This document shows, in pieces, positions 49,752-62,100 of a stretch of 64,000 nucleotides of DNA. The position numbers and the translations under genes were made by a program. The notes under the pieces are model-generated. The model was not told the DNA's origin. It ran no database searches and saw only the letters and a program-made list of their open reading frames with translations. This DNA is from Gemmatimonadota bacterium (GTDB lineage Bacteria; Gemmatimonadota; Gemmatimonadetes; Palauibacterales; Palauibacteraceae), in assembly GCA_039585235.1 (NCBI GenBank), contig JBDGWG010000001.1, positions 1,022-65,021 on the forward strand, read 5' to 3'. Positions within the stretch are counted from its first letter, which is position 1. Each line of letters starts with the position of its first letter.

Positions 49752-50415
49752 TGTACGCCATTCTCCTCTCGAGTTCCCCTTCGAGCTTCGCCAGCCGGAC
49801 ACGCCGTACCATCAGGTAGGCGTAGACGAGCGTGAAAGCGCCCAGATTCAGCATCAACGTCCACAGGATTTCGGGAGCCACGCTGCGCGGACTCGACGGC
49901 GGCTGATGCAGCGTGCGCCACCACGTGACCGACATGTAGACGATGGGCACATTCGCGAACCCGATCACCCCAACGATCGCTGACCAGCGGGCCCGCTTCT
50001 CTCCGTCGTCCGCGAAGCTCCTGAGCGCCAGGTAGCCTACGTATATGGCCAGCAGGATCGCCGTGGTCGTGAGCCGGGGGTCCCAGGTCCAGAACACGCC
50101 CCACGTCGGCTTGCCCCACATCATCCCGAGCAGGAGAGTGACGACCGTGAACACCACGCCGATCTCGGCCGAGCTGGCGGCCACCCGGTCCCAGCGCTCC
50201 TCCCTTTGAATCAGGTAGAGAACGCTCATCACGAACACGATGAAGAATGCGAGGAACGCGAGCCACGCCGCCGGAACGTGCACGTACATCAGTCTCTGCA
50301 CGTTGCCCTGGGCCGCGTCTGCCGGGACGACCACCAGGCCGACCCAACTCCCGACCAGCATGGCCAGGAGCGCCAGGATTCCGAGGACTTTCTCGACTGC
50401 CGTTCTTGGGCCCAC
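49744..50415 (-). CDS. ccmC: Heme exporter protein CcmC
   Basis: Six TM helices and the WWD motif GKPTWGVFWTWDPRLTTT. Confidence 0.85.
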   Translation of the reverse strand: MGPRTAVEKVLGILALLAMLVGSWVGLVVVPADAAQGNVQRLMYVHVPAAWLAFLAFFIVFVMSVLYLIQREERWDRVAASSAEIGVVFTVVTLLLGMMWGKPTWGVFWTWDPRLTTTAILLAIYVGYLALRSFADDGEKRARWSAIVGVIGFANVPIVYMSVTWWRTLHQPPSSPRSVAPEILWTLMLNLGAFTLVYAYLMVRRVRLAKLEGELERRMAYNA

Positions 50416-50416
50416 T

Positions 50417-51094
50417 TCACTCCTCCAGAGCGATTGGGAAGATCCAGATACAGATCACGAAGAAGATGATGTCAAACGCGCCCAGCACCCGCAGCCACAT
50501 CACGGCCTCTCCCATCAAGTTTCCCTGGAGGATCAACGTCGTGGCGTTCACCGCGCCGAGCAGAACCGGCACGAGCGCCGGGAACAGGAGCAGCGGGAGC
50601 ATGACCTCACGGGCCCGCAGGTTCACCGTGAGAGCCGAATAGAAGGTGCCCACGAGCGAAAAGCCGATCGTCCCGAGGACCGCGACGGCGATCAGCCCAC
50701 CCGCATACGGCCACAGGTTCGCCTGGAACAGTATCCCGGCCGCAGGAAACAGCACGGCCTCGACCAGGAGGAGCATCACGATGTTCCCGAGCAGCTTACC
50801 CAGGTAAATGGCGCGTGGATCGCCGGGGTAGGCCCGCAGGCCCTCGAGTCCGCCGCTCGTTTCCTCGTTTTGGTACGTGCGGCTCAGCGAAAGGAGGCCC
50901 GTGAAAGCGATACCTACCCACAGCAGGCCGCCGGCCACTCTCTGCAGAAGCTCGGTGTCCGGTCCGAGGGCGAAGCTGAAGATGAACAGCACGAGGGCGG
51001 CGAAGAACACCATCGCGTTGAAGCTCTGCTTGGTGCGGGCCTCGATGAGGAGGTCCTTCCACACGATGGCCCAGGCCCGATGGAAGACGGACAT
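50417..51094 (-). CDS. ccmB: Heme exporter protein CcmB
   Basis: Six-TM ABC-2 type permease with N-terminus MSVFHRAWAIVWKDLLIEARTKQSF, typical of CcmB. Confidence 0.85.
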   Translation of the reverse strand: MSVFHRAWAIVWKDLLIEARTKQSFNAMVFFAALVLFIFSFALGPDTELLQRVAGGLLWVGIAFTGLLSLSRTYQNEETSGGLEGLRAYPGDPRAIYLGKLLGNIVMLLLVEAVLFPAAGILFQANLWPYAGGLIAVAVLGTIGFSLVGTFYSALTVNLRAREVMLPLLLFPALVPVLLGAVNATTLILQGNLMGEAVMWLRVLGAFDIIFFVICIWIFPIALEE

Positions 51095-51726
51095 CAGTCC
51101 ATCTCCGGCGCGCCGGCCGGGCCGCCGACCGACAGGTGACGACTCAACGGCTCGGACTCGGGCAGGATCTCGAGGTGGCCCCTGCGCAGGATCCCGGTCT
51201 TTTCCGCCTCGCGCACCGCAGCGCCGTCCTGGTGTGAGGCCAGGAGCACCGTGGTGCCCACCTCCTTGAACTCGCTCACCACCTCGTCCACCAGGCGCAT
51301 GCCCTGCGAATCGAGTCCGGAGTACGGTTCGTCGAGCAGCGCTACCTGGATGGGACGCACGAGAAGCTGACCGAGTGCCAGGCGCTTCCGCATCCCGGTG
51401 GAGAACGTGCGCATCCGGTTATCCGCAACCTCGTCCAGGCCGATTCGCTCGAGCACTCCCGCGATCACCCCGCGGTCGGGCTTGAGGCCTGCCATCCGCA
51501 TGGTGAAATGGAGGTTCTCGGCGGCCGACAGATCGTCGTACAGGAAGCCGCGCACGGTAAGAAGGCCCGTGAGCATCCGGACCGCATCGGGGTCGCGCTT
51601 CAGCGAGTGACCCATTACGTGGCCATCGCCACTGGATGGGCGCAGCAAGGTCGCGACGAGCTTCAGGAGGGTGGTCTTGCCCGCTCCGTTCGGCCCGACG
51701 AGGCAAAGCGTCGTTCCGGGCTCCAC
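51094..51726 (-). CDS. ccmA: Heme exporter ATP-binding protein CcmA (annotated from GTG; true N-terminus probably extends to ~51825)
   Basis: Walker A GPNGAGKTTLLKL, signature YSGLDSQG-like, Walker B VALLDEPYSGLD. The 33 codons upstream of the GTG encode a conserved ABC N-terminus (AVELEGLSKRFGWKWALRDASVRV) but contain no ATG/GTG/TTG. Confidence 0.8.
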   Translation of the reverse strand: MEPGTTLCLVGPNGAGKTTLLKLVATLLRPSSGDGHVMGHSLKRDPDAVRMLTGLLTVRGFLYDDLSAAENLHFTMRMAGLKPDRGVIAGVLERIGLDEVADNRMRTFSTGMRKRLALGQLLVRPIQVALLDEPYSGLDSQGMRLVDEVVSEFKEVGTTVLLASHQDGAAVREAEKTGILRRGHLEILPESEPLSRHLSVGGPAGAPEMD

Positions 51727-51825
51727 GCGGACGCTGGCGTCGCGCAGAGCCCACTTCCACCCGAACCGCTTCGACAGTCCTTCCAGCTCGACGGCGGTCC
51801 GGGTCTCACGGTCTATTTGTATCGC

Positions 51826-52356
51826 TCAGCCCTCTGACGGTTCTTCGGTATCGAGCCGTCGCAACAGATTCTGCCCTAACACCTCGACGTATTGCCACGC
51901 CGGGTGCGTGCCCGGCACGGGCCGCATGAGCGACCACTGAACGGGCTCGGTCGGAAGGTCCATGGGATTGTACAGGGCTTCCACGTACAGCAGGGTGCCG
52001 CCCCGCTCCGGGTCCGCCCAGAAGAGCAGCTTGATGTACTTCTCCGGCTCCGACAGGTGGCCGAAAGTGGCCGTCTGGAGAACCCGTGGGACGTAGATCC
52101 AGTCCGACTCCATCGTCGCCATGTTGGTGCTGTCGTCCACAGTGCGGGAGAACCATCGAGGCTGGATCCCGTCGTTGCGCAGGACCTCCCAGGCCCTCTC
52201 CATCACCGTGTCCGGTGGAGCAGCCACCCGCACCACCGTCGCGTCCCTCGATGGCCCGCGACTGATACCGTGGCTCCCTGATCCGGACGCACATGCGGCC
52301 AGCATGCCGGCTACCAGCCCGGTCGCGAGCCATGTCGTTGTTCGGGGAGAGAGCAT
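51826..52356 (-). CDS. Lipoprotein, unknown function, first gene of the ccm operon
   Basis: Lipobox LVAGMLAACASG. Strong SD GAGGAGG 5 nt upstream of ATG 52356. Stop codon is in frame with, and directly abuts, the ccmA N-terminal coding sequence. Confidence 0.6.
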   Translation of the reverse strand: MLSPRTTTWLATGLVAGMLAACASGSGSHGISRGPSRDATVVRVAAPPDTVMERAWEVLRNDGIQPRWFSRTVDDSTNMATMESDWIYVPRVLQTATFGHLSEPEKYIKLLFWADPERGGTLLYVEALYNPMDLPTEPVQWSLMRPVPGTHPAWQYVEVLGQNLLRRLDTEEPSEG

Positions 52357-52534
52357 GTAACCTCCTCGGCCTCGGATGTGCTGGGCGCCCTCCGGCCTCA
52401 CACGAGCATTTGGTTATGCGGCCTGAGGCGTCCCGATGCAAGCTTTCGGTGCCGCTTCAGCACCTTCTGGAACCGGTACGTCGCACGCGATATGTTCGGC
52501 TCGGCGCTGGCCCGAAGCCAGGACAGTGAACGCA

Positions 52535-59004: not shown

Positions 59005-60564
59005 TCAGCCACTCCGATCGTGCTTCACGGTCACCTCACGTCCGCGGATGGCGGTTCCGTTCAGTTTCTCTATGACCTGATCGACGACCTGCGAATCGAT
59101 CTCCACGAGCGAGAAGCTGCCCCGGATTTCGATCTTGCCGATCTGCGCGCCAGCGATTCCCGTCTCCCCGGTGATCGCTCCCACCAGGTCTCCGACGCGC
59201 ACCGAATCACGATTACCGGCCCCGATGAACACGCGTGACCAGGCTCCTCGAGCTCCGCGGTGCGCGGCCCCCCGGGCTGCGCCCGAGCTTCGGTCAGCCG
59301 ACCGGTGCCCGACTCGCGTCGGCTCGCCGCCCCGTGAGGCGGCCTCCACGTCGGCCCAAGGGCGCACGGTGGGGTCCCCTCCGCCGGATCGCCGCAGCAG
59401 ATCTGACAGCGCAGCCGCAACGCGAGCGGTCCCGAACTCCTTCACCAGCGGCTCGAGGACCAGGAGCTCCGCGTCCGTCCCTCCGCGTTCGACGCGCGCC
59501 CGCACGAGCGACCGGTACCGGCCCACCGGGTTGAGCTCGGCCGTCGGAAGGAAGTCCGGGAGTAACCGGACCGATATGCCCGCGCGGGCGGCGAGAATCT
59601 CCATCTGCGCCCGGTGCGACGGATCCAGGATCACCACCGCGTGGTCGCTCGATCCGGCGGCCAGAGACTCGATGGACAGCGGAAGGCCGAGCCAGGCCCG
59701 TGCCGTGCCCGCTCCTTCACCGGCGTCTGGCAGAGTCGCCACGACGTCCCAGCCGTCCCCGGGTTCCGCGAGAGTGAATCCCGCGCTCTCGAGGGCCGCC
59801 GCCACGTTCTGAACGGAAGACTCCGACCGGCAGCGCACCCGCGCCTCCGCACGTCCGGAAAGCGCTCCAATCAGAAGGGAGAGGCGCTCCCTGGCGGACG
59901 CACCCAGCCCGGCGGCGACCCGCTCAGGGTAGCCTCCCCCCACGGGGTCGGGCGAGTCTCCTTCCTCGAAGGCGCTTTCAGGCCATCGGCGACCCCTCGG
60001 AAGCTGTCGCTGCACCAGCTCGCGGAATGTTCCGTCAACCCTTCGTGTTACGGCGATGCGCTTGGCGTCACCGCTGAGCGTGTCGAGCAGGGGCTCGACC
60101 GAGGCCCACTCGTCCAGATCCTCGAGGTCTGCGACTCCGTCGAGGATCAGAAGACGCAGATCGCCTAGGCCAAGCCGGCCCAGTCGGATTTCGGGGAGGA
60201 GCAATGACGGTCGTGCCACCAGGCACTGTACGGCGGTCGCCCCGACGTCGAGGCTTCCGTCCGTCCGCAGCCGCGCGACCCCGGCCCGCAGCCCCTGCGG
60301 ACCGATCGCACGCTGCACGGCGAGGGCCAGCTCGGTGGCGCGGTCACGTGTCGAAACGAGAACGAGAGCCTGGAGACCCGGTTCCGGGTCGCACGAGGCG
60401 CTGACTGCGAGCGCGTACACGGACTCGACCGCCGAGCCCCGCCCGGCAGCCAGGGCGAGATGATGGCCTCGCCGGATCGGCGTGTCAGCCGCGCCGAGGA
60501 TCTCGGGCACTTCCCGATACCCCATTCGGCCCGCGATTTCGGTCAGACTGGGCTCGTTCGACAT
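59005..60564 (-). CDS. DEAD-box-helicase-like protein with degenerate ATPase motifs and C-terminal DbpA-type RNA-binding domain
   Basis: C-terminal 75 aa (RVFIGAGNRDSVRVGDLVGAITGETGIAGAQIGKIEIRGSFSLVEIDSQVVDQVIEKLNGTAIRGREVTVK) matches the DbpA/YxiN RBD. The N-terminal two RecA-like domains keep helicase spacing, but motif I is AAGRGSAVE (no GKT), Ia is STRDRATEL, and II is DGVAD instead of DEAD. Confidence 0.6.
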   Translation of the reverse strand: MSNEPSLTEIAGRMGYREVPEILGAADTPIRRGHHLALAAGRGSAVESVYALAVSASCDPEPGLQALVLVSTRDRATELALAVQRAIGPQGLRAGVARLRTDGSLDVGATAVQCLVARPSLLLPEIRLGRLGLGDLRLLILDGVADLEDLDEWASVEPLLDTLSGDAKRIAVTRRVDGTFRELVQRQLPRGRRWPESAFEEGDSPDPVGGGYPERVAAGLGASARERLSLLIGALSGRAEARVRCRSESSVQNVAAALESAGFTLAEPGDGWDVVATLPDAGEGAGTARAWLGLPLSIESLAAGSSDHAVVILDPSHRAQMEILAARAGISVRLLPDFLPTAELNPVGRYRSLVRARVERGGTDAELLVLEPLVKEFGTARVAAALSDLLRRSGGGDPTVRPWADVEAASRGGEPTRVGHRSADRSSGAARGAAHRGARGAWSRVFIGAGNRDSVRVGDLVGAITGETGIAGAQIGKIEIRGSFSLVEIDSQVVDQVIEKLNGTAIRGREVTVKHDRSG

Positions 60565-60684
60565 ATCAAGTCACGCTCTCTCTTACCGGTCCTGGATACC
60601 CGGATCGTGGTTGACGAGGCCACCGGATCGCCCCTAGTCTACCCGGCGCTCTTCGCGTCCACATGCACCCCCGATCGGAACGCC

Positions 60685-62100
60685 ATGATCAGGTTCGCGA
60701 ACTTGCCAGCCCTCCTGTCGCAGACCGTGGACGGCGGAGTCCTCGAGCGGGTGACCGCGGTGAGAGACGCGGTGTGGGGCGTGCCGCTCATCGTGCTGCT
60801 CGTGGGAACCGGAGTATATCTAACCCTGCTCCTCCGGGGCCTGCAATTCCGCCAGCTACGGCGTGCCCTTCATCTGGCGTTCTTCAGGCGCCGGGAGGAA
60901 GGCGCTGACGGCGACATCTCGCACTTCCAAGCCCTCACGACGGCTCTCGCGGCGACAGTGGGGGCCGGCAACATCGTGGGTGTTGCGACCGCGATCTCCG
61001 CCGGAGGTCCCGGAGCCCTGTTCTGGATGTGGGTCGCGGGTCTCGTCGGGATGGCCACCAAGTACGCGGAGGCGGTGCTTGGCGTTCGCTTCCGGGAAAC
61101 GGACGCCCGAGGCGAGAAATCCGGCGGTCCGATGTACTACCTGGAGAACGGAATCCGGTGGGGGCGCCTGGGACGGATCCTGGCGATCGGCTTTGCCCTG
61201 TTCGCGACTCTCGCGGCCTTCGGGATCGGCAATGGCGCTCAGTCCAATTCTATCGCGGAGGCAGTCGGCAACGTCACCGGACTCTCGCGCCTGACGGTCG
61301 GGCTGGCGACCGCGTTCCTCGTCTCCATAGTCATACTGGGCGGTGTTCGGTCGATCGGCAGGTTCACGGCCGGGTTCGTGCCGGCGATGATCCTCCTCTA
61401 TATGGCTGCGGCGGGCCTGGTTCTTCTGCTCAATATCGACCGCGTTCCCGACGCGTTCCGCCTCGTGTTCGAGCACGCGTTCAGCGGCCGGGCCGCGGCG
61501 GGCGGCGCCGTCGGGTATACGATCGGCCAGGCCATCCGACACGGCTTATCCCAGGGCGTGTTCTCGAACGAGTCCGGGCTCGGAACCGGAGCGATCGCCG
61601 CCGCCGCGGCGCAGACTCGCGAACCCGTTCGCCAGGCCCTGATCTCGATGACGCAAGTGTTCATCGACACGCTCGTGGTGTGTACGTTCACCGGCATCGT
61701 GATCCTGGCAACGGGGGCCTGGGACACAGGACTCGACGGCGCCACCCTTACGCAGCAAGCGTTCTCGGCCGGCCTTCCGGGCGCATGGGGGCACCGCGTG
61801 GTGGCCGCGTGCCTCAGCTTCTTCGCCTTCAGCACGATCCTGGGCTGGTCTTACTACGGGGAGCGGAACCTGCAGTACCTGGTGGGCGTGAAAGCGATCG
61901 TGCCGTACCGGCTATTATTCGTGGCTGTGACAGCGGTAGCCGCGGTAGTCGAGCTCGATATCGTGTGGGCGGTGTCCCACGTGATGAACGGCCTGATGGC
62001 ACTGCCGAACCTGATCGGACTCCTGTTGCTTTCGGGGATCGTGTTCCGCGAGACGCGCTCGTACTTTGGCCGTTTCGGGAAAGAGCCCCCGCGCGCCTGA
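60685..62100 (+). CDS. Sodium:alanine (amino acid) symporter, AGCS family
   Basis: N-terminal block ISHFQALTTALAATVGAGNIVGVATAISAGGPGALFWMWVAGLVGMATKYAE, typical of AlsT/AgcS, and ~11 TM helices. Start at internal ATG 60685. Confidence 0.8.
   Translation: MIRFANLPALLSQTVDGGVLERVTAVRDAVWGVPLIVLLVGTGVYLTLLLRGLQFRQLRRALHLAFFRRREEGADGDISHFQALTTALAATVGAGNIVGVATAISAGGPGALFWMWVAGLVGMATKYAEAVLGVRFRETDARGEKSGGPMYYLENGIRWGRLGRILAIGFALFATLAAFGIGNGAQSNSIAEAVGNVTGLSRLTVGLATAFLVSIVILGGVRSIGRFTAGFVPAMILLYMAAAGLVLLLNIDRVPDAFRLVFEHAFSGRAAAGGAVGYTIGQAIRHGLSQGVFSNESGLGTGAIAAAAAQTREPVRQALISMTQVFIDTLVVCTFTGIVILATGAWDTGLDGATLTQQAFSAGLPGAWGHRVVAACLSFFAFSTILGWSYYGERNLQYLVGVKAIVPYRLLFVAVTAVAAVVELDIVWAVSHVMNGLMALPNLIGLLLLSGIVFRETRSYFGRFGKEPPRA

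Follow-up and report, generated by a model that had tools for sequence, protein, structure and literature searches.

The 64,000-nucleotide stretch of DNA analysed here (the window) belongs to a Gemmatimonadota bacterium of the family Palauibacteraceae (assembly GCA_039585235.1, contig JBDGWG010000001.1, positions 1,022 to 65,021). Its minus strand carries a cytochrome c maturation (Ccm) operon, and this study concerns the start of ccmA, the gene for the heme-exporter ATPase. The gene lies between a lipoprotein gene and ccmB. Directly downstream of it, Pfam matches identify CcmB, a CcmC-type Cytochrom_C_asm protein, CcmE and CcmF_C, and this ccmB-C-E-F operon is intact. The order of apgM (on the opposite strand), the lipoprotein gene, ccmA, ccmB, ccmC, a small open reading frame (ORF) and ccmE is constant in the related loci.

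Read on the minus strand, the lipoprotein gene ends with TCA GAG GGC and the stop codon TGA (51828-51826). A single codon, GCG, separates this stop from an ATA (51822-51820), which is followed by CAA, a second ATA (codon 3, Ile, 51816-51814) and GAC. The frame then runs through TTC GGG TGG and reaches CGC and a GTG (51726-51724), behind which GAG CCC GGA leads on to the Walker A motif GPNGAGKT (residues 43-50 counted from the first ATA, 51673-51696; its last codons are GCG GGC AAG ACC). The 33 codons from the TGA to this GTG translate as AIQIDRETRTAVELEGLSKRFGWKWALRDASVR and hold no ATG, GTG or TTG. The initial annotation had noticed that ccmA shares the frame of the upstream lipoprotein ORF and lacks a canonical start before the GTG, and both points were confirmed by our reading of the minus strand. 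It had also placed the GTG 12 codons before the Walker A; the GTG is indeed close to this motif, but the distance to the first Gly of GPNGAGKT is 10 codons. With canonical triplets making up 7.1% of the codons of 15 window genes, a start-less run of 33 codons has a chance of about 0.09, and the run alone is not improbable. What makes it informative is the in-frame stop, which shuts the frame immediately before a conserved N-terminus.

The product carries the motifs of an ATP-binding cassette (ABC) ATPase (GPNGAGKT, FSTGMRKR, LLDEP and ASHQ). Among equivalog-type models, the CcmA model TIGR01189 gave the best score, 121.7 bits against a cut-off of 131.6 and thus about 10 bits below it; NF010061 gave 115.7 against 195, and the broader subfamily models drrA and galliderm_ABC scored higher than TIGR01189. 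The homology extends upstream of the GTG. The ABC_tran domain (PF00005, 85 bits) covers residues 26-167 and begins 7 residues before it, and ABC-family profiles and solved structures align from about residue 9-13 after the TGA (about 11-15 for the profiles by themselves). The structure search, with matches taken up to an E-value of 1e-20, returned no solved CcmA, and MalK and NosF were used to map the N-terminus; both align to CcmA from their residues 2-3. In a pairwise alignment with MalK (32% identity over 214 residues), Ala2 of MalK is matched to Thr9, and Trp13 of its A-loop to Phe20. Codons 10-21, AVELEGLSKRFG (51760-51795), correspond to MalK residues 3-14 and encode strand beta-1 together with Phe20 (51763-51765), the aromatic residue of the A-loop. 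The GTG, which encodes Val33, aligns with MalK residue 26. Since profiles and structures align there, the homology of the N-terminal segment before the GTG is real. A CcmA beginning at the GTG would lose strand beta-1 and Phe20, so that the earlier expectation of a damaged ATPase core holds.

Taken together with the comparison of relatives described below, these observations make it very probable that translation of ccmA begins at the first ATA (51822-51820). The coding sequence proposed here runs from 51822 to 51094 on the minus strand and comprises 242 codons followed by TGA; the close relatives all give 242-codon ORFs from the orthologous ATA. We compared the window with 37 related Gemmatimonadota loci (38 in total, CcmA identity about 50-100%), consisting of 24 close loci from genomes (L001-L011) and metagenomes (L039-L051) and 13 distant ones (L012, L070, L071, L073, L075 and L077-L084), and aligned the start sites by anchoring on the KRFG motif. 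Such a comparison of ccmA starts had been suggested in the initial annotation, as had a start at the ATA that follows the stop, and its outcome strongly supports that option. An AUH codon (AUA, AUU or AUC; ATA, ATT or ATC in the DNA) occupies the orthologous site in 35 of the 38 loci, mostly exactly 17 codons before KRFG. ATA is found in 25 loci (the window, L001-L011, L039-L050 and L070), ATT in six (L073, L075, L080, L081, L082 and L084; that of L082 stands at -23 codons) and ATC in four (L051, L071, L077 and L079). Only three loci have a canonical codon, namely GTG one codon upstream in L078 and ATG in L083 and L012, the two most distant loci, both of which are without the lipoprotein gene.

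Conservation of the coding type sets in at the codon itself, and the bases just before it vary freely. The 20 distinct close relatives share each of the three bases of the ATA (100% conservation), while positions -1 to -9 are conserved at only 35-75%, and the preceding codon may be GCG, CTG, ACC, CCC, GCC, ATC, AAG, GTC, GCA or CTA. ATA accounts for 5% of the Ile codons in the 15 window genes, and its invariance here is therefore not a matter of ordinary Ile usage. In the same relatives the conservation profile rises at position 0, the ATA, and the downstream columns show third-position wobble. The ratio of nonsynonymous to synonymous changes (pN/pS) is 0.17 in codons 2-33 and 0.31 in codons 2-10, compared with 0.12 in the rest of ccmA, and the variable columns of codons 2-33 number 10, 9 and 25 at the first, second and third codon positions. 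These sequence patterns indicate that the N-terminus is under purifying selection and that the coding constraint reaches back to the AUH codon but no further. Gene calls that are over-extended in other relatives have an Ile at the start site behind residues that translate the Shine-Dalgarno sequence (RRRLIPIDR, KEASISLDR, QEAVITS and QEAAIPG).

A Shine-Dalgarno-like AGAGGG (51830-51835, minus strand) stands 7-8 nt upstream of the ATA, within the last lipoprotein codons, and its columns are 85-100% conserved in the 20 distinct close relatives. In one alignment, all 28 distinct AUH loci have a motif of the GGAG, GAGG or AGGAGG type 5-8 nt ahead of the AUH codon, against a background of 6.2% of window positions for the GGAG/GAGG type; L082 has AGGAAG. 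The spacing between this motif and the AUH codon is conserved across loci, unlike the distance from the lipoprotein stop.

The surroundings of the start codon also show some regularity. Codon 2 is Pro (CCN) in most relatives and CAA (Gln) in the window. The second ATA is kept in most close relatives, is replaced by ACA, GTA, ATT or CCC in some, and is absent in L070. Selection for an A/U-rich, unstructured initiation region may account for this pattern at codons 2 and 3. On a neighbor-joining tree, parsimony counts at least about five changes among A, T and C at the third position of the start codon and none to G. This pattern hints at selection for a weak start.

Several points weigh against initiation at the ATA or against a selected weak start. 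The chance of seeing no change to G is roughly (2/3)^5 = 0.13, so that the evidence of selection against ATG is weak and not significant. The loci of the ATA clade are closely related (84-94% identity), and their conservation partly reflects shared ancestry. L081 and L084 have no clear GGAG or GAGG before their ATT. L077 and L079 have a canonical GTG or ATG in frame between their AUH codon and strand beta-1, and it is possible that the AUH codon is not the only start in these two loci, which could produce two N-terminal isoforms or have undergone a lineage-specific shift to a canonical start. Finally, low output and sensitivity to the initiation factor IF3, which we would expect of such a start, are extrapolated from other phyla. 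In the sequences of L077 (about 1450-1530) and L079 (about 1480-1530), the canonical codon follows a few codons downstream of the ATC, which is itself preceded by a Shine-Dalgarno motif.

The other places at which translation might begin fit these data poorly. A start at the GTG 51726 would leave the 33 upstream codons untranslated and yield a protein of 210 residues. The GTG is the first canonical triplet and is used in dozens of public gene calls; however, codons 2-33 show purifying selection and a three-base periodicity, in alignments they match strand beta-1 and the A-loop of ABC ATPases of solved structure, PF00005 begins upstream of the GTG, the bases before it (GACGCCAGCGTCCGC) contain no GGAG or GAGG, and its third base varies, the codon being GTC in the group of L009 and L047-49. 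We regard this start as very improbable. Initiation at a non-canonical codon further downstream is improbable as well. The second ATA, like the first a rare codon, is kept in most close relatives, yet its replacement in some of them and its distance of 13-14 nt from the Shine-Dalgarno sequence speak against it. The CTG codons, which had been offered earlier as possible initiators, find no support: they lie inside strand beta-1, vary to CTC, TTG or CTT, have no Shine-Dalgarno sequence, and their use would delete this strand. It is also conceivable that ribosomes start at an out-of-frame GTG (51809-51807), which heads a 48-codon ORF in the +1 frame, and shift by -1, or that an assembly indel hides an in-frame GTG. 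Many relatives have a GTG or ATG in the +1 frame, but L003 and L046 have no start there and L046 has a TAG. Moreover, amino-acid conservation with synonymous changes begins right after the ATA, upstream of the +1-frame GTG, and 35 independent assemblies show the same frame relation. The chance that either version is correct appears very slim.

The same 35 independent genome and metagenome assemblies bear on the option of a sequencing or assembly error, raised in the initial annotation, and on that of a decaying pseudogene. The absent canonical start is the only point in favor of either. The arrangement is shared by all these assemblies, which refutes a sequencing error, and the full-length ORF is intact with a pN/pS of 0.12-0.17 and an intact ccm operon behind it; the probability of an error or a pseudogene is negligible. 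Read-through of the lipoprotein TGA, likewise an earlier option, or a frameshift would produce a lipoprotein-CcmA fusion or feed ribosomes into the ccmA frame. It draws on the fact that the two ORFs of the window are in frame and parted only by the TGA. In relatives, however, the position of the lipoprotein stop ranges from -7 to +54 nt relative to the AUH codon; in 12 of 32 loci the stop is out of frame with ccmA, and in L051 it overlaps the start. This variation in frame and distance refutes read-through. In a fusion, the signal peptide of the lipoprotein would also direct a cytoplasmic ATPase to export, which would seem functionally senseless, and this explanation too has practically no chance of being right. 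Because the distance of the stop varies and its frame often differs, the in-frame abutment to the TGA is incidental; it is peculiar to the sublineage of the window and without bearing on the mechanism.

A variant of the ATA start deserves more weight. The ATA could be used mainly by ribosomes that re-initiate by 70S scanning after terminating on the lipoprotein gene, and not by de novo binding of 30S subunits. The lipoprotein stop is always near the AUH codon, in the window it sits between the Shine-Dalgarno sequence and the ATA, no promoter- or terminator-like site was seen between the two genes, and both loci without the lipoprotein gene (L012 and L083) start ccmA with ATG. On the other hand, what is conserved is the spacing from the Shine-Dalgarno sequence to the AUH codon and not the distance or frame of the stop, L078 has a lipoprotein gene yet a GTG start, and the two loci that lack the lipoprotein gene are at the same time the most distant, so that the correlation is confounded by phylogeny. 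We consider a start that depends on such coupling rather unlikely. Termination-reinitiation, another option of the initial annotation, may contribute, but would still use the ATA.

The neighboring genes are relevant to how a start at the ATA would act. The conserved lipoprotein gene (51826-52356, minus strand) begins with an ATG at 52356 behind GAGGAGG and encodes a lipobox, LAAC. Its ORF spans 51826-52401, and the protein, of 176-191 residues with the C-terminal motif HPAWQYV...RRL, matched nothing in Pfam or NCBIfam. The gene is present between the divergent apgM and ccmA in every AUH-start locus, and the lipoprotein may be a Gemmatimonadota-specific component associated with the Ccm system. 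It is probably co-transcribed with ccmA; a scan for promoters and terminators between the two genes found nothing, with the limit that the sigma-70 consensus may not suit this phylum. On the other side, ccmB (50417-51094, minus strand; PF03379 CcmB, 147.7 bits) begins with an ATG that overlaps the TGA of ccmA (TGATG, 51092-51096), which suggests translational coupling downstream of a weak start. In the ccmC frame, the first canonical start is a GTG at 50415, 1 nt past the ccmB stop. With an operon so tightly coupled, a weak start at ccmA may determine how much the genes behind it produce.

Based on these features, initiation at the ATA would proceed as follows. The strong and well-spaced AGAGGG would pair with the CCUCC anti-Shine-Dalgarno sequence of 16S rRNA and thereby bring the AUA into the P site. 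An anti-Shine-Dalgarno sequence that contains CCUCC is listed for the class Gemmatimonadetes (PMC10783764). The initiator fMet-tRNA would decode the AUA despite the mismatch at the third position, and the product would be a CcmA of 242 residues (Met-Gln-Ile-Asp-Arg-Glu-Thr-Arg-Thr-Ala-Val-Glu-Leu...) with a complete ABC ATPase N-terminus. In E. coli reporters AUA, AUC and AUU initiate at about 1-2% of AUG (bioRxiv 10.1101/063800), and in other systems AUH starts give about 5-7.5% of AUG output (PMC5499595). IF3 discriminates against AUH codons, which is the basis of infC autoregulation (PMC2830850, PMC5499595), and the GTC start of Streptomyces sigR is reported to be repressed by IF3 (PMC5472188). 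By analogy, the ccmA start is probably weak and IF3-sensitive. The output of ccmA would then be low, and possibly sensitive to IF3 or to growth conditions, and this low output would be handed to ccmB and the genes beyond through the TGATG junction, while the ATG of the lipoprotein gene would allow this gene much stronger translation from the shared transcript.

It is possible, although we hold this only tentatively, that the weak AUH start is actively maintained and more than tolerated. It might tie the heme exporter, and the Ccm machinery coupled to it, to the state of initiation fidelity (IF3 level, temperature, nutrients or ppGpp) or to translation of the lipoprotein, which would then be a new Gemmatimonadota-specific Ccm component. 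RNA structure around the start gave no signal (minimum free energy -35.4 kcal/mol, z-score 0.07), and Rfam and tRNA scans of the window found nothing.

A crude scan of the window, based on the distance from each stop to the first canonical start and on the GC content at third codon positions (GC3), yielded three candidates for inspection and no other convincing non-canonical start. As far as this crude scan goes, the non-canonical start is specific to ccmA and not a genome-wide habit. Elsewhere in the window, an ORF at 60208-62100 on the plus strand (630 codons) has its first canonical triplet 84 codons past the upstream stop, and its start-less stretch has a GC3 of 0.83. By eye it resembles an amino-acid:cation symporter, its likely start is an internal Met (MIRFANL...), and an antisense ORF overlaps the leader.

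Public annotations reflect the difficulty of this start. A protein search returned dozens of Gemmatimonadota relatives (79-100% identity) called as proteins of 201-217 aa from or near the internal Val, most of them 210 aa long, and a few whose calls are instead over-extended far upstream. Truncated and over-extended calls together indicate that gene finders cannot find a start. The closer relatives in public databases are mostly 201-220 aa long and named as generic ABC or multidrug ATPases (NNK47921.1, MCL7972878.1 and many JGI calls). One ortholog is different. TFG66242.1, annotated as 'heme ABC exporter ATP-binding protein CcmA' (L084:1501-2166, SPCS01000057.1), is given a Met where the DNA has ATT, and its MSAQQPAVEL is collinear with I(ATT)SAQQPAIDL of L081. 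Thus the NCBI pipeline has in one case already annotated an ortholog from an AUH codon. A further observation concerns L009 (CAXMRU010000139.1), a contig deposited in a metagenome-assembled genome (MAG) labelled Akkermansiaceae that nevertheless contains a lipoprotein-ccmA locus of the Gemmatimonadota type, with 85% CcmA identity and a junction identical to that of L048; this contig is probably mis-binned.

If the ATA is the start, a systematic annotation error can be corrected. Most public CcmA calls of this clade either lose strand beta-1 and the adenine-stacking A-loop or run into the upstream gene, and as a result of the wrong calls the proteins are named generic ABC or multidrug ATPases and not CcmA. 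The very short list of conserved bacterial AUH starts would gain a clade-wide example, in a gene of membrane biogenesis and not in a translation or replication factor. The finding also suggests that Gemmatimonadota set or regulate their cytochrome c maturation at the step of translation initiation. More generally, aligning gene starts across relatives can reveal non-canonical starts that escape gene finders.

Our searches of the literature on ccmA start-codon peculiarities and on start codons in Gemmatimonadetes returned nothing relevant beyond the anti-Shine-Dalgarno table cited above. Starts of the AUH class are established for a few other genes: infC starts with AUU, AUA or AUC, pcnB with AUU and Deinococcus dnaA with ATC, the last identified by N-terminal proteomics (PMC2830850). 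The closest likeness is to infC (PMC2830850, PMC5499595), in which an AUH codon is conserved across lineages, AUA, AUU and AUC interchange without AUG, the Shine-Dalgarno sequence is normal and misannotation is routine. However, the AUH codon of infC is a cis-element of IF3 autoregulation, whereas ccmA encodes a heme-exporter ATPase without a link to translation, and its AUH conservation is known within one Gemmatimonadota clade, from the comparison of sequences. Deinococcus dnaA (ATC) and E. coli pcnB (AUU) resemble ccmA as housekeeping genes that have an AUH start in one lineage (PMC2830850, bioRxiv 10.1101/063800), recognized by a conserved N-terminus upstream of any canonical start and by a conserved AUH codon in the nucleotide alignment; there the proof is experimental, from N-termini or genetics, while the case for ccmA is comparative.

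The sigR gene of Streptomyces offers another parallel, since its conserved non-canonical start is reported to serve as a point of translational control (PMC5472188). Its codon, GTC, is of a different class, and its dependence on IF3 was shown by experiment, whereas for ccmA this dependence is extrapolated. Among System I CcmA proteins, TFG66242.1 from a Gemmatimonadales MAG shares the ccmA-B-C-E-F operon, the ABC ATPase and the upstream lipoprotein gene, but is only about 50% identical. Judged by these sequence comparisons, ccmA would be a further case of the infC-like non-canonical AUH start, and the mechanism itself would not be new.

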